NCBI GenBank assembly: GCA_963976285.1
Contig: CAXBJY010000012.1
Span: forward strand, 23,830-87,829
Length of the DNA stretch: 64,000 nt
Direction of reading: 5' to 3'
Source: an uncultured Gammaproteobacteria bacterium
GTDB taxonomy: Bacteria > Pseudomonadota > Gammaproteobacteria > Ga0077536
Under the pieces are notes generated by a model, which had not been told where the DNA came from, did not search any database, and saw nothing but the letters and a program-made list of their open reading frames with translations. Shown in pieces: positions 41,861 through 63,169 of this stretch. Made by a program: the position numbers and the translations under genes. Numbering within the stretch: the first letter of the stretch is position 1; every line of letters begins with the position of its first letter.

Positions 41861-42991
41861 TTGCAGACAATCGATGAACTGAATATCGCCCACGTCGTCT
41901 TCGCGTTTGGCTACGGCGGCCTCGAACGCCGGATCCTGCGCCTGATCGACGGACTCGCCACCGATCGGGTCAACTTCCATATCATTTCCCTGCGCGATTC
42001 CGACGGCGCGTTCCTCGAGCCTGGCCCGCGGGTCACACACGAGGTATTGCACGCGCAACCGGGCATCGACGTGCGCGCGATCGCGGCGTTGCGCCGTTAC
42101 CTGCGCGCGCATGACGTGCATATCGTGCATTCACATAACTGGGTATCCATGCTCGAAGGCATCGTTTGCGCGCGTCTCGCGCACGTGCCCGTGGCCGTGC
42201 ATGGCGAGCACGGCGCAAGCCGCTTCCTGCCGGAGCAATTGCGCTGGCGCCGCACGCTTGTCCAGCGTCTGCTCGCGCGTGCGGCGGATCGGATCGTGCC
42301 GGTGAACGATCCGATCGCCAGGCGCGTACGCGAAGTCTGGGGGCTCGGTGACAACGCGATCACCGTGATCCAGAACGGGGTCGACGTCGCTAAGTTTGCC
42401 CCGACCGAGGCGCGGCGCGGTGAGGAAATCGTCATCGGCAGTATCAGCCGCCTCGAACCGATCAAGAACTTCCCGTGCCTCGTACGCGCCGTGGCGTTGC
42501 TGAATCGCGAGTACGGGACGCCGCGTTACCGGCTCGTCATCGTCGGCGCGGGGAGTGAGCTCGAACGCCTCGATGCGCTCGCGCGAGAACTCGGGGCGAC
42601 GGATTTCATCGAGTTTCCCGGCGCTACCGACGCCCCGGAGGACTGGTACGGCAAGTTCGATATCTACGTGAACTGCTCGTTCTCCGAAGGCATGAGCAAC
42701 ACCGTGCTCGAAGCAATGGCCTGCGGGCTGCCGGTCGTGGCGTCCGACGTTGCGGGTCATCGCACGTGGCTCGACGAGGGCGAGAATGCCGTGTTTTTCC
42801 CGTCCGACGAACCCGCGGCGCTCGCCACGGCGCTCGCGTCACTGGATGAACCGGCGCGGCGCCGGATCGGGGCGACGAACCGCACGAAAGTTGTCGACCG
42901 CTACAGCCAGGCGACGTTTATCGCGGCCTATCGCCGCCTGTATACGGAATTGCTTGCGGCCCGGGGCTATCGCTACCACTTCGACGATTAA
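41861..42991 (+). CDS. GT4 glycosyltransferase
   Basis: GYGGLERR, VHGEHG, IQNGVD, SRLEPIKN, SFSEGMSNTVLEAMACGLPVV. Confidence 0.88.
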   Translation: MQTIDELNIAHVVFAFGYGGLERRILRLIDGLATDRVNFHIISLRDSDGAFLEPGPRVTHEVLHAQPGIDVRAIAALRRYLRAHDVHIVHSHNWVSMLEGIVCARLAHVPVAVHGEHGASRFLPEQLRWRRTLVQRLLARAADRIVPVNDPIARRVREVWGLGDNAITVIQNGVDVAKFAPTEARRGEEIVIGSISRLEPIKNFPCLVRAVALLNREYGTPRYRLVIVGAGSELERLDALARELGATDFIEFPGATDAPEDWYGKFDIYVNCSFSEGMSNTVLEAMACGLPVVASDVAGHRTWLDEGENAVFFPSDEPAALATALASLDEPARRRIGATNRTKVVDRYSQATFIAAYRRLYTELLAARGYRYHFDD

Positions 42992-43113: not shown

Positions 43114-44628
43114 CTATGATTTTTGCCCCGCCGCGGCGCTTCGGTGGCGGCGGGCGGCGAGCATCTCGAGGACGTCACGTTCGATCCCGCCCGGTTTACC
43201 GCACCCGAGCCACAAACCGAGCACCGCGAGCGCGTAAGTGATGGCTCCCGTCGTGATCTGGACGCCGAGTACGAGTCCGTCCGCGCCCGTTGCGACGAAG
43301 CCGGTGATCAGACGGACCGCGCCGGCCATGAGGGCGGCGGCAACGAGCGGACGCCAGACGACGTCGACGAGGCGCGCGCGGTTGATGTCGCGGGTAGTCG
43401 TGACCAGCCACGAAATGGCCCAGAAATTGAAGGCTACGAGCAACACTTTCGACCACGCAATCCCCTCGATGCCGGCAAGCCGGAATCCCGCGTACACCGC
43501 GAACGGCGTGAGCGCGGCACGTAAGAGCGCGATTTTTGCCACCGCATCGATATGCCCCGAAACCATGTTCAGCACGGCGCTCGCGGTCACGAGCGTACGC
43601 AACAGCGCATAGAAACACAGGATCTGCACGACCGGAACCGCGGCGTCCCAGTTCGGACCGAGCGCGATCGGAATGAACGCGGGCGCGACGAGCGCAAGAC
43701 CAATCGAGCACGGCGCGCCAACGAGCGCCGCCGCGGCCAGCGATTTCAGGTACGCCTGATCGAGCCGCGCCGGTTCGTCGCGCAGTTTTGCAAACCCCGG
43801 GATCAGGGCGCGTGACACCGGCGCGGTAATTTCCGGACCCGCCATGTTCGCGATTTCGCCACCGATTGAATAATGCCCGACGACCTGCGGCCCGCCGAGC
43901 GCACCGACGAACACGCGATCGATACGGGTCGCGATATGGTTGCCAATATGGGTTGCGAGCATCCATTTCGAGAACGACCAAATCGCGGAAAACGCCGCGA
44001 GCGAGAAGCGCGGCCGGTACGGGTGCATCACGTAACTGAACACGACTTCGGCGGCGTAACTGACGACGATGCCGATGACGAGCGCCCAGTAATTGCGCAA
44101 CCACAGCGCGAGCGCGAGGGTCGCGATCATCGCCGCCACCTTCGTCAGGAGTTCGTAAGTAAATTCACGACGGAATTCGAGTTCGCGGCGGAACAGGACG
44201 ACTCCGATATTCGCACTGCCGCGCACCATCGACGCGACGGCGACGACGAGCAGGATCGGCACGACCCGCTCATCGTCGTAAATGAATCCGGCGAACGGGA
44301 TCAGCGCGAGCATCGTGGCGCCCGCACCGAGCGCCTGCAACAGCCGCAGCGTCCAGCCCGTATCCAGCGTCGCGCGATCCGCCGAAGAACTCGTGATCAC
44401 GGCGTAGTCGACCCCGAATTCGAACAGGATATTCACGCTCGCGACGAGCACCATCGTCATCGCCGCGAGCCCGAAGTCTTCCGGTTCGAGCAGGCGGGCG
44501 AGGATGAACGTGCTGATGATCCCGAGCAGGCGCACGCCCCACTTCGTCGCCACCATCCATGCGGCGCCGCGGATTAGCTGGCCGCGCAGGGGCGGCGGTG
44601 TGGCACTCGTCGGATCGTTCGGTGTCAC
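43114..44628 (-). CDS. wzx: Wzx-type (PST family) repeat-unit flippase
   Basis: ILARLLEPEDFGL, multiple TM segments, FSKWM, VGHYSIG; GTGA overlap with the upstream gene. Confidence 0.85.
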   Translation of the reverse strand: MTPNDPTSATPPPLRGQLIRGAAWMVATKWGVRLLGIISTFILARLLEPEDFGLAAMTMVLVASVNILFEFGVDYAVITSSSADRATLDTGWTLRLLQALGAGATMLALIPFAGFIYDDERVVPILLVVAVASMVRGSANIGVVLFRRELEFRREFTYELLTKVAAMIATLALALWLRNYWALVIGIVVSYAAEVVFSYVMHPYRPRFSLAAFSAIWSFSKWMLATHIGNHIATRIDRVFVGALGGPQVVGHYSIGGEIANMAGPEITAPVSRALIPGFAKLRDEPARLDQAYLKSLAAAALVGAPCSIGLALVAPAFIPIALGPNWDAAVPVVQILCFYALLRTLVTASAVLNMVSGHIDAVAKIALLRAALTPFAVYAGFRLAGIEGIAWSKVLLVAFNFWAISWLVTTTRDINRARLVDVVWRPLVAAALMAGAVRLITGFVATGADGLVLGVQITTGAITYALAVLGLWLGCGKPGGIERDVLEMLAARRHRSAAAGQKS

Positions 44629-45725
44629 CGATGGGCCGCTGTAGAAAGCGCGCGAGAGAAGAAACCCACGGCTTCGGGCACGAAAAATTCATGCCCTCGA
44701 TCGGGCATGACTACAAGTTCGACGGCATCCCCCGCGCCCGCGGCTGACCATGCGGCCGCGACACCCAAGCGAAATGCCTCGGTCAACGGCCGATCCTCGC
44801 TACCGCGCAGTGCCAGCGTCGGCCGGGGCGCGAGCAGCAGAACGATGTCTTCCCGACGCATCAGCCGTATCAATCCGGGGATAATATGACAGTAGTGCGG
44901 TTGCGCTCCGCGGTCGCCTGAAGCGTAACCGAAAGGCCCAGCGGTTCCGCCGAACGCCGAAAAATATACGGCGCGCACGTCGTTCGACAAGGCGCCGAGC
45001 GTGACCGCGAGTTCACCACCTAGTGATGCCCCAGCGACACCTACACGCGCTGGATCGACAAAGTCGAACGACCGCAAAGCAGCAAGCGCATAGAGCGCGT
45101 CCGCAAGCACGATGCGCTTGTAGAACGATCCTTCGAGCAGTGCGTTGTAGGCGACGAGACGATGATCTGTATTATGCGGCGCGCCCAGCAAACCGAATCC
45201 GCGCAGTTCGAATGCGAGGGTCACGAATCCCGCGCGAGCAAGCGCCGTAGCGGCGGCGTGCTGATAGCTGTCTTCATCGTAGACAAGTTGCGCGAGGCCG
45301 GATTCATCGGGTTTTGTATGCCCCGGGATCAGAAGAACCGCCGGCATCGTGTCGCTCCCCCGCGGCCGGTGCAAAACCGCGGGAATGTGCGTTCCGTCGA
45401 GGCTCACGAACGTGAGCGTTTCGCGGATCAGGCCACCGCGCAGCGTTTCCGTTCGCACGACTGACGTCTGTACCTCACGCGGTTTTACCTGGCGAAAGTC
45501 GAAAACGTCTGTCAGGTGCGAGCGGAGATCCGTCTGCCATCGCAAAAACTGCTGTGCGTCACCGATGGGGGCCGGCGGCGGCACTGCACTGGTCATATTG
45601 ACGTAGCCAACGTCGCCAACACTGAATTCGTCCGCGAGTTTTGCAACGGGATCCGGCCGTGTCAGCCCGATGATCACGCCAATAAAAATGGCGAACCCGG
45701 CTGCAATCAAAAAATTTCTCGCCAC
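44625..45725 (-). CDS. Membrane-anchored alpha/beta hydrolase (esterase/deacylase-like)
   Basis: N-terminal TM anchor, PAVLLIPGH, GFGLLG, GASLGG nucleophile elbow, LAPRP, GHEF. Confidence 0.78.
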   Translation of the reverse strand: MARNFLIAAGFAIFIGVIIGLTRPDPVAKLADEFSVGDVGYVNMTSAVPPPAPIGDAQQFLRWQTDLRSHLTDVFDFRQVKPREVQTSVVRTETLRGGLIRETLTFVSLDGTHIPAVLHRPRGSDTMPAVLLIPGHTKPDESGLAQLVYDEDSYQHAAATALARAGFVTLAFELRGFGLLGAPHNTDHRLVAYNALLEGSFYKRIVLADALYALAALRSFDFVDPARVGVAGASLGGELAVTLGALSNDVRAVYFSAFGGTAGPFGYASGDRGAQPHYCHIIPGLIRLMRREDIVLLLAPRPTLALRGSEDRPLTEAFRLGVAAAWSAAGAGDAVELVVMPDRGHEFFVPEAVGFFSRALSTAAHR

Positions 45726-56575: not shown

Positions 56576-58312
56576 ATGACGGCTGAGGCCGCTTCGCAAC
56601 GTTCGGGCCCGGTGCTCGTACTCGGACGCGATATTCGCGCGTTTCTGTCGGTCATCCGCTCCCTCGGGCGCGCATCGCTCGATGTCCACGTCGGCATGTG
56701 CCCGAGCGACGATCTGGCGCTTAAGTCGCGTTACATCAAACACGTACATGACATTCCCAATTACGATGACGCGCCCGAAGCGTGGCTCGACACGGTGCTC
56801 GGGCTTGCCCGCCGGTATCGATTCGACCTGATCATTCCAACCCACGACGAATCGGCCATCCCGGTCCAGATCCACCAGGATCGCCTGCGCGAGGAAGCCC
56901 GGATCTATGCCCTCGAGGCGGAAGTGTTCGACGTCGCCTTCGACAAGATCAAATCGTCACTCCTCGTCGAATCACTCGGCATCAGGATTGCCCGGCAAAT
57001 CTCCGTTGAACTGTCATCACTCGAGGCCGGTTTACCGGACGGGTTTGATTTTCCTGTCGTCATTAAACCATCGTCATCGTACGTGAGTGAAGACCTCGCG
57101 AATCGCCGTGAGGTTGTCGTCGCGTCCAATGCCGCGCAACTTCACGATATTTTACCGAAGCTCAAGGGCTGGGACGTTGCGTTACTGCAGGAACATTTCA
57201 CCGGTGTCGGCGCCGGGGTTGAAGTACTCGTCGAGGATGGCCGCATTTTGTACGCGTTCCAGCACGTCCGCGTGCATGAACCGCGCGGTGGCGGCGCGAG
57301 TTCGTATCGCAAGAGCGTCTACCCGATCGACCCCGCGCTGTATGCCGCGACCGAAAAGCTCATGGCGAAAATTCGCTACACCGGGGTCGCGATGGTCGAG
57401 TACAAGATCAACCCGGTTACCGGCGACTGGATATTCATTGAGATCAACGGTCGCTTCTGGGGTTCTTTGCCGCTTGCGATCGCGAGCGGCGCCGATTTCC
57501 CCCGCATGCTTTACGAACTGCTCGTGGATGGCCACGTCAACCTGCCGCCACCGCCGCGCGGCGAGGTGTATTGCCGCAATATCAAGCGCGATTTGTACTG
57601 GGCCATCGACAATTTGAAGGATCGACTGTCGGATCGACCGTCGAAGTTTTCGATCCCGCTACCACAGGTATTGCGTGAATACTGGCGCCTCATCACCTGC
57701 CGCGAACATGTCGACAGCTTTGCCATCGACGATCCGTCGCCGGCGCTGCGGGAGTTTGGCAGCGTTATCGCGATGATGGTGGCCAAGGCGGTTTCCGTGA
57801 CGCACCGGCGGGTCCGCTCGTTCGCGCCCGTCCACGCGTTACGTCGCCGCCGGATCCGACGGCGCACGCTCGCAGCCGGCAAGGTCATGTTTTTGTGCTC
57901 CGGTAATATTTGCCGCAGCCCGTTTGCGGCGGCTTACGCGCGGGAAATTTTTGGTCCCGGGGTGGACATACGATCGTCGGGTTTCCACGATATCGTGCGC
58001 CGCCACGCACCGACGCAGGCGGTGCAGTCAGCGCGTGAACTCGGCGTCGATCTCGCCGACCATGAATCCCACCGGATCGACGCGGCAACGCTCGACGAAT
58101 TCGATGTCGTGTTCGTGTTCGAGGAAAAACACATGCACGCACTGCGGGCCGAATTCCCGCAGTACCGCGGCGATGTGTTCTATCTCGGCGACGTGCTGAT
58201 CGGGAGCGATTTCGAGATCGCCGATCCGTACGGCGGCGGGAGTGAACGTTTTCGCGCTGCGTACCTGTCCATTGTTTACGCTATCGACTTCCTCGATTCG
58301 CGCTATGAATGA
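56576..58312 (+). CDS. ATP-grasp ligase fused to a C-terminal low-molecular-weight phosphatase domain
   Basis: ATP-grasp: FDKIK, PVVIKP, LLQEH, AMVEYK, FIEINGRFWGSL. LMW-PTP: FLCSGNICRSPFA (CX5R) and IADPYGG. Confidence 0.85.
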   Translation: MTAEAASQRSGPVLVLGRDIRAFLSVIRSLGRASLDVHVGMCPSDDLALKSRYIKHVHDIPNYDDAPEAWLDTVLGLARRYRFDLIIPTHDESAIPVQIHQDRLREEARIYALEAEVFDVAFDKIKSSLLVESLGIRIARQISVELSSLEAGLPDGFDFPVVIKPSSSYVSEDLANRREVVVASNAAQLHDILPKLKGWDVALLQEHFTGVGAGVEVLVEDGRILYAFQHVRVHEPRGGGASSYRKSVYPIDPALYAATEKLMAKIRYTGVAMVEYKINPVTGDWIFIEINGRFWGSLPLAIASGADFPRMLYELLVDGHVNLPPPPRGEVYCRNIKRDLYWAIDNLKDRLSDRPSKFSIPLPQVLREYWRLITCREHVDSFAIDDPSPALREFGSVIAMMVAKAVSVTHRRVRSFAPVHALRRRRIRRRTLAAGKVMFLCSGNICRSPFAAAYAREIFGPGVDIRSSGFHDIVRRHAPTQAVQSARELGVDLADHESHRIDAATLDEFDVVFVFEEKHMHALRAEFPQYRGDVFYLGDVLIGSDFEIADPYGGGSERFRAAYLSIVYAIDFLDSRYE

Positions 58313-59123
58313 GATCCTGGATCCGACGGCCGCACCCGCACCGGAATCGTGCACGACGGTACTGAAGGAGAATGCATACAAACGGGTCGCCCTGACGACG
58401 GAAGCCGACGGCAGGAAATTGATCCGTAAACGTTACCGCGGACATCGCGCGGAACACCTCGCGGCGAATACGCGCTACGTCGCCGCTACGCTCGCGCTGT
58501 TCCGGGAGCACTTCAGCGATATCGTCCTGACCCCGGCCTGTTGCGGCATCGACCTCGCGGAGTATGAAGTGACGATCGAGTATCTCCCGTCGCTGCCCGG
58601 CGCCGCGCTACTGACGAAACACACGTTCGCGCGCGCCGCGGTGTTTTTTGAACGCTGCTACACGATCCGCGACGATCGCGGTTGCCTGCGCCCGATGTCG
58701 CTGTCCGTGTACTACACGCCACGGATGCAGGCACTGATCGAGGACGGAATACCGCTCGCGCTCGGTCTCAAGGGCGATCTGTGGCAGAACCTGTGCCTCG
58801 ACGGTGATGCCCTCGTGCTCGCGGATATCGATTCCGCCGCACTCGAACCGCTCGGGCTCAGCGAACTGATCATGATCGCGGAAATCGCGGCGTCACTGCG
58901 CCGCGAGAATTTCGCCTTTGCCGGGGTCGCGCCCGAACCCGTGTGTTTTCGGCACCTGACACGCGATGAGGCCGATGCGATCATCGACGCCGCGCTCGAA
59001 ATCTTCGACCTGCGCCTCGCCGCGGCCCTGCCCGGTTTGCGTTACGCGAAACGCCGGATCGCGCGCAGCGTCCTCGAGCGTGCCCGGGATCGCGCGTATA
59101 CACCGCGGAGTAATCCGATATGA
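58305..59123 (+). CDS. Hypothetical protein, possible divergent protein-kinase-like (APH/Kdo-WaaP) fold
   Basis: LIRKRY, VTIEYLP, KGDLWQNL, VLADID in kinase-like order; overlaps both neighbours. The CDS is likely real, the fold call is tentative. Confidence 0.55.
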   Translation: MNEILDPTAAPAPESCTTVLKENAYKRVALTTEADGRKLIRKRYRGHRAEHLAANTRYVAATLALFREHFSDIVLTPACCGIDLAEYEVTIEYLPSLPGAALLTKHTFARAAVFFERCYTIRDDRGCLRPMSLSVYYTPRMQALIEDGIPLALGLKGDLWQNLCLDGDALVLADIDSAALEPLGLSELIMIAEIAASLRRENFAFAGVAPEPVCFRHLTRDEADAIIDAALEIFDLRLAAALPGLRYAKRRIARSVLERARDRAYTPRSNPI

Positions 59124-60118
59124 CGGCAAAACTGATCGTGACGATCGATACGGAAGAAGAAGGCCTGTGGTCGGGAAAATTCTCCGGTTATGACAACCCG
59201 GTGGAGAATCTCGCCGGGATTCCCGCATTTCAGGCGATCTGTGACCGCCACGACATCCGCCCGACGTACCTCGTGAACTCACCCGTAGTCAGCAACGAGC
59301 AGGGTTGCGCGGTGCTCGACGACATTCTCCGCGACGGCCGCTGCGAGATCGGCTGTCATATCCACCCCTGGAACACGCCGCCGGAAGAAGACGATATTAC
59401 GAGCGAACGTTCTTATCTGTGCAATCTTCCGCGCGAGCTTCAGCGCGCAAAACTCACGACCGTGACGGCGCAGATCGAACAGCGCTTTGGCATCCGGCCA
59501 ACGTCGTTCCGCGCCGGACGTTACGGACTCGACGACGACGGCGCGGCGATCCTGAAGGAACTCGGTTACACGGTCGACTCGAGCGTGTGCCCCTACATGG
59601 ATTACTCGGACGACGGGGGGCCGGATTTTCGCGGCGCGACGTGGCGGCCCTACTTTGTCGGCGAGAAATTACTCGAACCGGCACCCACGCGTACCGAACT
59701 CGTCGAAGTGCCGGTGTCATTCGGGTTCAACTGGACGAACTTCGAGGCCGCCCATCGTCTCGACGAGTTTCTAGCCGGCCCCCGCGTGCGCCGATTTCGG
59801 GTCAAGGGCATTCTCGAACGACTCGGCGCCCTGAGGAAGATCAAGTTCTCGCCGGAAAAAGCGGATTCCGGGCGTCTCAACGCACTCGCGGATGCGTACA
59901 CCCGGCAGGCCGCACCGTGCATGGTCATGATGTTCCACAGTTCATCGCTGCAGCCCGGATATTCGCCGTACGTGCCGGATCCGGCCGCGCTCGACACGTT
60001 CCTGCGCACGATCGACGAAACGTTCACGTACTGCCTCGATACGCTCGGCATGCGCGGCGCAACGCTGAGCGAGTTCGCGGCTGAATTCGCCGCCACCCCC
60101 GTTCATGCCGGGGCGTGA
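59120..60118 (+). CDS. Polysaccharide deacetylase family protein (WalW-like)
   Basis: TIDTEEE, IGCHIHPW, SFRAGRYG, VDSSV, MMFHSSSL. Confidence 0.8.
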   Translation: MTAKLIVTIDTEEEGLWSGKFSGYDNPVENLAGIPAFQAICDRHDIRPTYLVNSPVVSNEQGCAVLDDILRDGRCEIGCHIHPWNTPPEEDDITSERSYLCNLPRELQRAKLTTVTAQIEQRFGIRPTSFRAGRYGLDDDGAAILKELGYTVDSSVCPYMDYSDDGGPDFRGATWRPYFVGEKLLEPAPTRTELVEVPVSFGFNWTNFEAAHRLDEFLAGPRVRRFRVKGILERLGALRKIKFSPEKADSGRLNALADAYTRQAAPCMVMMFHSSSLQPGYSPYVPDPAALDTFLRTIDETFTYCLDTLGMRGATLSEFAAEFAATPVHAGA

Positions 60119-61151
60119 CATCGACCGCGCGATGACGCGCCGGCGGGAGCGCGGCGCGATCCGGTTCAGGCCGATGATCGCGCTGAACGTGCTCGCACTC
60201 GGCCTGCTCACGGTGGCGGTCATCACATTCGGGACGTCGAAGGAAAACGGCACCCGGGTACGCAACAGTTTTCTCGTGCAGACCGCGGGTGAACAGCTGT
60301 TGTCGCTGCCGCCCGCGGCCCTGCCCGCCGATTTTCAGCGCGAACGATTGCCCGCCCCGGAATATCTTGTCGTGAAGGTCGACGAGTTGATCCCGCCACA
60401 CACGCGCGGCGAGATCCCGGAATTCGAGCAGAGTTTGATCCTCGCGCGCCACCTGATTGCGAACAAAGGCAAGGGCAAGGCGATCCAGGGCAGCGTGCAA
60501 GAAGCGTATCGCCTGATCCGCGATCAGGGGCGCGGTTATTGCGCGGATTACTCCCAGGTATTCACGGCGCTGGCACTCGCTGCCGGGATCCCGGTGCGCG
60601 AATGGGGGCTCGGCTTCGATGGTTTCGGTCGTGGTCATGCCTTCAACGACGTCTACGACACGCGGCTGCAACAGTGGGTGTTTATCGACAGCTACCACTC
60701 GTTGTTCGTCATCGATCCGGCCAGCGGCAGACCGTTATCGACGCTCGAGTTCCAGCGCCGCCTGCTCGACGACGGCAACATGCAGACGTACCGGTTCGTG
60801 CCGATCGTCGCGGAGAAATACCGTTTTCACACCGCCGCCGAGGCCAACGACTACTACGCGAAGACCGCGGCGAATTTCTACCTGTTCTGGGGTAATGACG
60901 TGTTCTCCTACGACGACGACCCCGTCGTCCGGCTGCTGGCCCCGCTGTCGCGGCCGCTCGAAGTGCTCGGCGCGATTGCAAGCGGCGCGCAGCCCGGGAT
61001 CCGGGTGTTGGAACTACCGGGCAACGCGCGTTATATCGCGCGTCTGGAGACGATCCGGCAGGCACTCGTTACCGCCCTCATCGTCGCGTTGGCGCTACTG
61101 ATAACATTGGGTTTACAACTTATGCGCTTAATGCGCCGGCGCCAGGCATGA
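60105..61151 (+). CDS. Membrane-anchored transglutaminase-like protein
   Basis: GYCADYS (Cys), GHAFNDVY (His), VFIDS (Asp); N- and C-terminal hydrophobic helices; start uncertain (60105, 60132 or 60174). Confidence 0.78.
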   Translation: MPGRDIDRAMTRRRERGAIRFRPMIALNVLALGLLTVAVITFGTSKENGTRVRNSFLVQTAGEQLLSLPPAALPADFQRERLPAPEYLVVKVDELIPPHTRGEIPEFEQSLILARHLIANKGKGKAIQGSVQEAYRLIRDQGRGYCADYSQVFTALALAAGIPVREWGLGFDGFGRGHAFNDVYDTRLQQWVFIDSYHSLFVIDPASGRPLSTLEFQRRLLDDGNMQTYRFVPIVAEKYRFHTAAEANDYYAKTAANFYLFWGNDVFSYDDDPVVRLLAPLSRPLEVLGAIASGAQPGIRVLELPGNARYIARLETIRQALVTALIVALALLITLGLQLMRLMRRRQA

Positions 61152-63169
61152 CCGGCGCGCCCCCAGGTCTCGCCGGTGCGCTCGCGTTTGCGAGCGTTGC
61201 CGCCATGTGTACCACTTTCATGCTTGCTAACACCACGCAAATCGGGCGCGAGAGCACGCCGGATTCGGCCGGAAGGACAACTATCGTCCCCGAGAACTCA
61301 CGTTTCTGGGGTCGAGAGGCGTTCGTTCCGGACTGGCGTCGCGGTGACGAAATCGACGCAGTGGCCAGTGAATATTTTATCAAGCACTATTGGCCGAAAC
61401 TTCGACCACCGCGCTACGCGAATTCCAACGCGTCACAGCCTCGACCGGCCGCCGATGGGGTGCGGATATTTCCCGCGAAATACTGGCATGCCATAGACCC
61501 CGATCATCAGGTCAGCGCCGAAGACCGATTCACCTCACCGATTGAGCTGTTCGCGGCCCGCGGCGAAAGCGAACCGGTTGCCATTGGCGTGCGCACCGGG
61601 GCATCTTCGCGCGTTGTCTCGCTGACAACAACGACCCTCGCCAGCGCAGCCAGCGCAATCGATGCGCAGGCCGTAACGAACCGACTCATGCTGAGTTACT
61701 CAGCGCGCCGCGATCCGGGGAGACGCCCAACCGAAACGGTGGAAAAACCGATGGTATTGCTGAAGCCGCCTGCTAACCGATGGAAATTTCCGCCCGCGAC
61801 AGCAATGGCATATGTTGTCGATTTTCACGTACCTGTCGATCAGCCCGCCGGCGAATACCGGGGTGAAATCATCGTCTCCGTTGATGGCGAAGAACACGAA
61901 CGACTTCCGGTGTTACTAACCGTGCTGCCGTTTTCGCTCAAGACGAACGGTTTCCACGCGGGGGCATTCGGCACAACGTACAACATCTGGACAGGCGGCT
62001 TCAGCGGCTATACAGAAGAGATGATCGAAATGGACAGCCGCTACGGCTACAACCTTGCCGGCGGTTTCTTCAACAAGGGCAACGAGGTGCCGTTCGTACG
62101 CGAAAAAGGCGGCCGCGTGCGGGTCGACGAGTCGGACGCCAAATTCGCCAAATTCAACGCCACAATGAAGTTGTTGCGGAACTATGGCATGGGTGATGTT
62201 GCGTTCTGGAACTGGGGCGCGAGCGGAAATGTCAAACAATTCAATAACGTGCTGGCAAAAGTCGGCTTTCCTCCTATCGACACGGACAGCGGCAAGCGCG
62301 GTTTCGCCTTGATCTGTGCGGCGCTGAAGCGCGCAGAAATCCGAAACGATTGGCCGGAGTTCGTACTGAACCCTTACGATGAGGCGCTCAAAGACCAGGA
62401 TTCAACACTTGAAATCATCAAGTCTATCCCGGCTGTACGACAGATAAGTCCCAGTACGCGCCTTTACATGACCGAATGGCGCCGGGGTTACACACGGCTT
62501 TACCAAAGCACTGGACTGTCGCTCAGCGGTTCGAAACGGCCACGAAAGCGTGAAATGCGGATCCTCGCGTCGGCTCACGAGACCCCGAGAATGAACTTCC
62601 AAGTAATTGGCGCAAATACGCTCAGTCATGAAGCCGCAAACCTGCAACATCGACTTGGGGGAGAATACTGGCACTATGGCGGTGCTAGCCGGCTAGATGC
62701 GCAATCACGCCTCGCGTATGGATTTATTCCCTGGGTAGTCCGGGCCGACGCGAGTCTGATATGGGCCAATTACAAAGGCGATCTACTTGGTAACGGCTGG
62801 ACACTGCACTATGCGATGCCAATCGACCCGGACGGGCGGCGCAATCGCGACACTCGCGGGCCAATTATTCCGAGCGTTCGCGCTATCGCTGTCAGAGAGG
62901 GTATTGACGATCGGAAATACATCGAAACACTGCGCTTTTATGCGACACAGTCCGGCTCGATGGCGGATTTACGGTACCTCGATTCACTTAGCACCGAAGT
63001 GCGTCGTTCCGTGTCCAATATAATTGCGGTCGGAGGGCTCGACAATATTGAGCCCCTTGTATCCGAACAACGGCAAATGGACGAGCTTCGCGCAGAACTA
63101 CGCACCCGCATAGTCAAGTTAATGGAGATACCGCGTAAAAGTTACGAGAGCCCGACAGCGGTCCATTGA
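61148..63169 (+). CDS. Large exported protein, GH123/DUF4091-like glycoside-hydrolase-like
   Basis: LFAARGESEP, VPVDQPAGEYRGEI..V..LPVLLTVLPFSL, YDE acidic pair, REGIDDRKY. Confidence 0.55.
   Translation: MTGAPPGLAGALAFASVAAMCTTFMLANTTQIGRESTPDSAGRTTIVPENSRFWGREAFVPDWRRGDEIDAVASEYFIKHYWPKLRPPRYANSNASQPRPAADGVRIFPAKYWHAIDPDHQVSAEDRFTSPIELFAARGESEPVAIGVRTGASSRVVSLTTTTLASAASAIDAQAVTNRLMLSYSARRDPGRRPTETVEKPMVLLKPPANRWKFPPATAMAYVVDFHVPVDQPAGEYRGEIIVSVDGEEHERLPVLLTVLPFSLKTNGFHAGAFGTTYNIWTGGFSGYTEEMIEMDSRYGYNLAGGFFNKGNEVPFVREKGGRVRVDESDAKFAKFNATMKLLRNYGMGDVAFWNWGASGNVKQFNNVLAKVGFPPIDTDSGKRGFALICAALKRAEIRNDWPEFVLNPYDEALKDQDSTLEIIKSIPAVRQISPSTRLYMTEWRRGYTRLYQSTGLSLSGSKRPRKREMRILASAHETPRMNFQVIGANTLSHEAANLQHRLGGEYWHYGGASRLDAQSRLAYGFIPWVVRADASLIWANYKGDLLGNGWTLHYAMPIDPDGRRNRDTRGPIIPSVRAIAVREGIDDRKYIETLRFYATQSGSMADLRYLDSLSTEVRRSVSNIIAVGGLDNIEPLVSEQRQMDELRAELRTRIVKLMEIPRKSYESPTAVH

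Follow-up and report, generated by a model that had tools for sequence, protein, structure and literature searches.

A putative deacetylase, a transglutaminase-core protein and a GH123-like protein encoded together in an XrtA-type exopolysaccharide locus

A three-gene operon tail in an exopolysaccharide locus

The window analyzed here is a stretch of 64,000 nucleotides from an uncultured Gammaproteobacteria bacterium of the Ga0077536 lineage (assembly GCA_963976285.1, contig CAXBJY010000012.1, positions 23,830 to 87,829 of the forward strand; genome G000 below), and our subject is three consecutive genes in it, g1, g2 and g3, which form the tail of a tightly packed five-gene operon on the + strand. 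An earlier note on this DNA had described them as an overlap-coupled WalW-like deacetylase, a transglutaminase-like protein and an exported GH123-like (glycoside hydrolase family 123-like) protein, and had proposed that they work as one cassette linking exopolysaccharide (EPS) to protein. The three genes are as follows:

59120-60118, + strand: g1, putative cytoplasmic WalW-like divergent CE4-superfamily deacetylase, 332 amino acids
60105-61151, + strand: g2, bitopic transglutaminase-core protein, 348 amino acids, with the Cys146 codon at 60540-60542
61148-63169, + strand: g3, exported GH123-like (beta/alpha)8 putative glycosidase, 673 amino acids, with the Asp411-Glu412 codons at 62378-62383

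The open reading frames (ORFs) and their overlaps agreed with that description. g1 and g2 overlap by 14 bp (g1 stop codon at 60116-60118, g2 ATG at 60105), g2 and g3 share 4 bp in a common ATGA at 61148-61151, and g1 itself overlaps the preceding gene, unk293, by 4 bp. The locus is of the XrtA/PEP-CTERM type, Wzx/Wzy-dependent, and the XrtA-associated markers TIGR03100, TIGR03099 and TIGR03098 all score above their cut-offs in the window. XrtA itself lies outside it, as the two XrtA genes above the cut-off are on other contigs of the genome. In bacteria of wastewater and the environment, XrtA/PEP-CTERM loci drive the formation of flocs and biofilms, and to our knowledge no chemistry has been assigned to the majority of their accessory genes.

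The three proteins and their predicted compartments

The name "WalW-like deacetylase" is, for g1, a distant superfamily assignment, and as such it holds. A homologue at 53% identity is named "WalW protein" in UniRef, and alignment of g1 with the genome's own TIGR03006 deacetylase using hhalign gave a probability of 80% (E 1.4e-5). That canonical deacetylase is on contig C79, adjoining XrtA, and g1 is not among the five TIGR03006 matches of the genome, nor does it match any other NCBIfam model. Its Pfam score for Polysacc_deac_1 (PF01522) is 20 bits (E 7e-4), below the gathering score of 23.1, and the best match of its profile in the PDB had an E value of only about 0.5. The g1 family has more than 1000 matches, many of them annotated as polysaccharide deacetylase, and PF01522 is found in only 14-16% of the members of its Atlas neighbors. 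The invariant residues of g1 (D10, E12, E13, H80, H82, R131, R134, Y135, D153 and H273) come in the same order as the CE4 motifs (Asp/Asp, His-His, Arg-x-x-Tyr, His), with a His spacing of HxH where CE4 has HxxxH.

Hydropathy analysis of g1 revealed no signal peptide, transmembrane (TM) helix or hydrophobic segment, and the open frame extends only two codons beyond the ORF, leaving no room for a signal peptide, so that g1 is predicted to be cytoplasmic. WalW is encoded in the enterobacterial lipopolysaccharide (LPS) core (waa) cluster and is classed as CE4-like (CDD cd10935; Edwardsiella, Sodalis; PMC6817725, PMC13588514), and we found no published biochemistry of WalW in the literature. Because WalW is a CE4-like gene of the LPS-core cluster and g1 has no export signal, the most economical reading, and the most likely one, is a cytoplasmic deacetylase acting on lipid- or nucleotide-linked N-acetylhexosamine (HexNAc), which would de-N-acetylate a nucleotide- or undecaprenyl-linked repeat-unit intermediate, in the manner of WalW/WabN. 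Like the WalW/WabN-type deacetylases, g1 is a signal-less CE4-superfamily protein encoded among glycosyltransferases, although it belongs to an EPS/XrtA locus rather than to an LPS core cluster and its link to WalW runs through the UniRef name of its homologue.

In the cationic EPS systems of PgaB (poly-N-acetylglucosamine) and PelA (Pel), HexNAc deacetylation takes place in the periplasm. The deacetylase and self-glycanase pairs of these systems resemble the present locus in that one EPS operon combines a gene of the HexNAc deacetylase type with a glycoside hydrolase gene, and g1 and g3 adjoin in the same-genus genome G003, but g1 and g3 come from families other than those of PgaB and PelA. 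Periplasmic deacetylation of the PgaB/PelA type was considered for g1 and rejected, as g1 has no export signal. As regards the earlier proposal that deacetylation exposes hexosamine (HexN) amines, g1, with neither signal peptide nor TM helix, would be unable to act on exported polymer, whereas HexN could still be formed before export.

The description of g3 as an exported GH123-like protein with a Tyr-Asp-Glu acid pair was borne out. Its AlphaFold2 model (pLDDT 86) was compared with the PDB using Foldseek, and GH123 or Nga enzymes made up the whole of the top 22 matches (E 3e-24 to 2e-17), the best being BvGH123, NgaDssm, NgaAt, NgaCa and CpNga123 (E 3e-24 to 1e-19). With these GH123/DUF4091 enzymes (BvGH123 5l7u, CpNga123 5fqe, NgaCa/NgaAt/NgaDssm 8k2f/h/j) g3 shares an N-terminal beta-sandwich followed by a (beta/alpha)8 barrel (TM-score of 0.65 on the target), an aligned consecutive Asp-Glu motif and a REGIDD..YIE block. 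The pair D411-E412 lies in the motif NPYDE and is invariant in 28 sequences. A bridge protein, P0231, which carries PF13320, could be aligned with the g3 family across 522 columns (hhalign probability 99.7%), with NPYDE opposite SPMDE, and the MDE of P0231 aligns in turn to the "IAMDE" of BvGH123, with a weak second domain. The g3 family profile matches GH123/Nga structures in the N-terminal domain as well as in the C-terminal REGIDD..YIE block; a profile of the catalytic domain alone found no match among PDB sequences.

In Pfam, g3 (protein P0003) had a sub-threshold match to PF22680, the GH123 N-terminal domain (E 0.04), and nothing at E 0.01, and PF22680 was matched by 17 of the 28 family members. 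The catalytic domain PF13320 (GH123_cat, DUF4091) was matched by none of the 28 at E <= 1, and no PF13320 protein was found in G000 or in 150 Pseudomonadota genomes. Since no member matches PF13320, we place the g3 family as a deep outlying branch. It comprises 44 clusters at 90% identity, from metagenome-assembled genomes (MAGs) of Gammaproteobacteria and Planctomycetota, and a library-wide profile search with g3 returned 2420 distant relatives, just 15 of them at E <= 1e-30. The family thus differs from the known GH123/DUF4091 enzymes in its small size and missing GH123_cat match, in the low identity of g3 to solved structures (9-17%), and in its setting, which is EPS biosynthesis loci and not glycan-foraging loci. 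We describe it as a DUF4091-negative deep branch of GH123-like hexosaminidases encoded in EPS biosynthesis loci.

At the N-terminus of most g3 homologues there is either a classical signal peptide or a signal anchor. In this genus, the N-terminus of g3 (61148-61240) is a hydrophobic helix with no positive residue before Arg34, and its start codon or its mode of export may be a different one.

In GH123 and in four groups related to it, the Asp-Glu pair serves as acetamido stabilizer and acid/base of substrate-assisted catalysis (Sumida et al. 2024, PMC11087588). By analogy, g3 would be an exported enzyme of the retaining beta-N-acetylhexosaminidase type, with Asp411 positioning the acetamido group and Glu412 acting as acid/base. 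Self-glycanases in other EPS operons cleave or trim their own polymer, and g3 probably cleaves or trims the HexNAc-containing polymer of its own cell. In GH123 chemistry, de-N-acetylated residues are unable to support substrate-assisted hydrolysis, so residues deacetylated by g1 would be resistant, and the effect of g1 would be to shield positions from g3, not to make them ready for trimming. In the earlier note g3 has a trimming role; a GH123-type enzyme needs the 2-acetamido group, so it would leave deacetylated residues untrimmed.

Genes for AXE1/DLH-type alpha/beta-hydrolases (esterases) were observed near g3-family genes in three loci (window 44625-45725, - strand; L002:6074-7225; L005:7295-9838), and such an esterase may be a candidate O-deacetylation partner of the GH123-like protein.

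For g2, the transglutaminase-like domain, the intact Cys-His-Asp triad and the TM helix at each end were all confirmed. Transglut_core (PF01841) scored 31.7 bits, above the gathering score of 23, and Cys146 is invariant across 30 homologues (29-82% identity), in which His178 and Asp195 are >=90% conserved. The two TM helices, at residues ~21-45 and ~314-344, are also conserved in the homologues, and the protein ends in LMRLMRRRQA. Arg-rich flanks mark the cytoplasmic side, and the positive-inside rule accordingly predicts that the triad domain faces the periplasm, as had been claimed. Transglut_core was the only domain found, with neither the DUF3488 multi-TM N-terminus nor the DUF4129 C-terminal domain of the TgpA type. 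A PEP-CTERM sorting signal at the C-terminus was considered and rejected, as the helix has no PEP motif ahead of it and its conservation is that of a plain anchor.

The AlphaFold2 model of g2 has a pLDDT of 93, and Foldseek matched only its core of ~140 residues, at TM-scores of 0.2-0.3; the ~170 residues outside the core had no structural match. The matched structures are the putative protease 3isr, TglA, TgpA, PeiP/PeiW, PNGase, NATs and LapG, and the transglutaminase-core fold is common to proteases, isopeptidases, PNGases and acyltransferases. The g2 triad aligned only weakly (E 0.93) to C191/H218/D235 of yeast PNGase. TgpA (6g49), PeiP/PeiW and PNGase (1x3w) carry a Cys-His-Asp triad on the same core, and the domain of TgpA is periplasmic like that of g2. 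What sets g2 apart is its pair of single TM helices, one at either end, and, in XrtA loci, its fixed synteny with genes for sugar nucleotides. The Atlas clusters for g2 were named only "hypothetical protein", and no relevant paper linking PEP-CTERM or exosortase with transglutaminase was found in the literature. We define the g2 family as an uncharacterized bitopic periplasmic transglutaminase-fold family with a fixed place beside the sugar-nucleotide dehydrogenase in XrtA loci.

Independent distribution of the families and the reading of the locus

Forty relatives, including 10 same-genus genomes, were sampled. Among them, g2 was found in two genomes at just 33-35% identity, g3 in three and g1 in four. 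The co-occurrence of the genes in other genomes, on which the earlier note had staked the cassette, was largely not found, with g2 in none of the 10 same-genus genomes. In G003 (locus L001) the order is ATP-grasp fusion, unk293, g1, g3, and in G007 (L003) it is ATP-grasp fusion, unk293, g3, with g1 11 kb off; g2 was not found in either. The other g3 loci (L002, L004-L007) have esterases, a methyltransferase, GT2 (glycosyltransferase family 2) and beta-helix proteins as neighbors. In G440, g1 directly follows XrtA-associated hydrolase 1 and g3 lies ~26 kb off on the same contig; g2 was not found.

A Haliea MAG (G438:C11, L100) has an operon that begins with a unk293-like gene and continues, after further genes, with GT2, AsnB, g2-like, pectate-lyase-like, exosortase (EpsH+DUF3485), FemAB/GNAT, GT4, AsnB and GT4, with a g1-like gene as its final gene; the g3 of this MAG is on another contig. 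The g2-like gene is one gene away from the exosortase, and in L100:7743-11825 the g2-like gene, the pectate-lyase-like gene and the exosortase, which is fused to a DUF3485 (EpsI-like) domain, are co-directional.

From the 146 g2 relatives that a metagenome scan yielded, 80 loci were retained, some being near-duplicates of each other. Neither tblastn nor a hidden Markov model search found a gene of the g1 or g3 family in any of the 80. The surroundings of g2 were instead consistent: a nucleotide-sugar dehydrogenase directly upstream (42 of the 47 loci whose flank was long enough), an AsnB-like gene no more than 6 kb away (30/37) and a GT4 just downstream (34/46). In one of these loci (L047), TIGR03108 (1051 bits) and TIGR03097 (510 bits) are in the same operon as g2. 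In a sample of 400 Pseudomonadota genomes, which includes the unpublished G420, used only as a negative, XrtA was above the cut-off in 29, and neither the g2 family nor the g3 family was found in any of these 29.

Among the loci examined, all three genes are adjacent only in G000. The differing gene orders in G003, G007, the Haliea MAG, G440 and the 80 metagenome loci argue for an accessory gene pool of XrtA-type EPS loci whose members are shuffled independently. With hydropathy, open-frame lengths and the N-termini of g3 homologues as the evidence on compartments, we propose that g1, g2 and g3 are three separate accessory EPS-tailoring enzymes, working in three compartments and gained, lost and reordered independently by lineages, a reading to which we assign a probability of roughly 0.6. 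In it, g1 would be the cytoplasmic enzyme and g3 the exported one, while g2, anchored by its two TM helices on the periplasmic side of the inner membrane, would use its Cys-His-Asp triad on an amide or ester bond, be it in the repeat unit after flipping, in the polymer or in a client protein. The neighbors conserved around g2 elsewhere, a nucleotide-sugar dehydrogenase and AsnB-type XrtA amidotransferases, point to a possible uronic-acid or uronamide chemistry. The strict trio would be limited to the G000 genome and perhaps a few close metagenomic relatives.

Several points weigh against this proposal. The activities of all three families are predicted; g1 is assigned from sub-threshold matches, with HxH in place of HxxxH, and the fold matches of g2, limited to the ~140-residue core, are not diagnostic of chemistry. 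The tight translational coupling in G000 may mirror a real functional link in its clade. Furthermore, for one g1, one g2 and one g3 homologue in the protein database the longest contig is given as 57,598 bp in each case, an unconfirmed indication that they share a single contig; if they do, a second lineage may carry all three genes. A second metagenome contig size, 13,702 bp, was likewise matched between homologues, with adjacency deduced only from the identical sizes.

The same data bear on the cassette proposed earlier, in which g1 exposes HexN amines, g2 as a true transglutaminase links them to Gln of surface proteins (e.g., PEP-CTERM proteins) and g3 trims HexNAc ends, giving a covalent EPS-protein matrix. 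The intact triad and periplasmic orientation of g2 fit such a role, as do the XrtA markers, which denote a locus type where protein sorting and EPS are linked, and the Haliea operon, where a g2-like gene near the exosortase shares an operon with a g1-like gene. However, the trio is not a conserved unit, as both G003, with g1 and g3 and no g2, and the 80 metagenome loci indicate, the structures that come closest to g2 belong for the most part to hydrolases (putative proteases, PeiP/PeiW isopeptidases, PNGase, LapG), and no partner protein substrate was identified. We now regard this model as very improbable, and an attractive but unsupported reading of the locus is thereby removed.

Alternatively, g2 may be a cysteine protease or isopeptidase, anchored in the membrane, whose substrate is a protein (a PEP-CTERM client or some other protein of the periplasm) instead of glycan. 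The best Foldseek matches of g2, putative cysteine proteases, LapG and the endoisopeptidases PeiP/PeiW, point this way, and so does the association of g2 with an exosortase locus in L047 and Haliea. We nevertheless consider this role unlikely, since the absence of the g2 family from the 29 XrtA-positive genomes sampled implies that it does not belong to PEP-CTERM sorting in general, and the fixed neighbors of g2 are sugar-nucleotide and glycosyltransferase genes rather than client proteins.

In a more specific form of the uronamide idea, g2 could act on sugar carboxamides, with uronic acids made by the dehydrogenase being converted by AsnB to uronamides, which g2 would then deamidate or whose uronyl group it would move to an amine (HexN or Lys), altering polymer charge or crosslinking chains. 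The synteny of AsnB-like gene, GT4, dehydrogenase and g2 favors this idea, as does TIGR03108 in the g2 operon of L047, and because transglutaminase-fold enzymes attack carboxamides, the chemistry would be in keeping with the fold. On the other hand, the case is built from synteny, the role of the AsnB paralogue in such loci is itself unproven, and in the window the dehydrogenase and AsnB are 6-12 kb from g2 on the opposite strand, making this role, in our judgment, distinctly unlikely. Very improbable, too, is an extension in which the g2 family is a periplasmic amide-transferase of XrtA-type EPS systems, using polysaccharide uronamides as a Gln-like acyl donor and coupling them to g1-made HexN or to lysines of exosortase clients; if true, glycans in flocs and biofilms would be covalently crosslinked to one another or to proteins.

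Two uncharacterized families, g2 and g3, are now defined and open to testing.

Neighboring genes and minor observations

The rest of the operon and the divergent genes upstream of it comprise the following features:

56576-58312, + strand: operon gene 1, ATP-grasp ligase fused to a low-molecular-weight (LMW) phosphotyrosine-phosphatase-like domain (Pfam LMWPc 1e-22, and ATP-grasp matches)
58305-59123, + strand: operon gene 2, unk293, 272 amino acids, overlapping both neighbors
34420-56305, - strand: divergent EPS gene block, a long minus-strand set
41861-42991, + strand: stp2-type GT4, the sole + strand gene inside the span of the EPS block

The EPS block encodes XrtA-associated hydrolases 1 and 2, a pyridoxal phosphate-dependent decarboxylase, an acyl-CoA ligase, Wzx, an O-antigen-ligase-like protein, GT4s, AsnB, a GT2, a UDP-sugar dehydrogenase and a PF14099 polysaccharide lyase. 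On the 3′ side of g3 are a convergent GT4, another AsnB and, at the contig end, an insertion sequence (IS) integrase. The integrase (rve; L102:4365-5408, G000:C12) lies ~4.4 kb past the end of the window, just after the second AsnB-like gene, and may be the reason why the EPS locus and XrtA are split between contigs in the assembly. Promoter-like and terminator-like sites in the region were no more numerous than in shuffled sequence.

No Pfam or NCBIfam match was found for unk293. Its homologues occupy the same position in L001 and L003 and the start of the Haliea operon (L100:236-994), and the ATP-grasp/LMW-phosphatase fusion and unk293 are kept together upstream of g3 in L001 and L003. In the Campylobacter capsule pathway, glucuronate receives a phospho-amine from an ATP-grasp enzyme, after which a phosphatase takes the phosphate off, and 56576-59123, with its combination of kinase-like protein, amide ligase and phosphatase, is reminiscent of that pathway.

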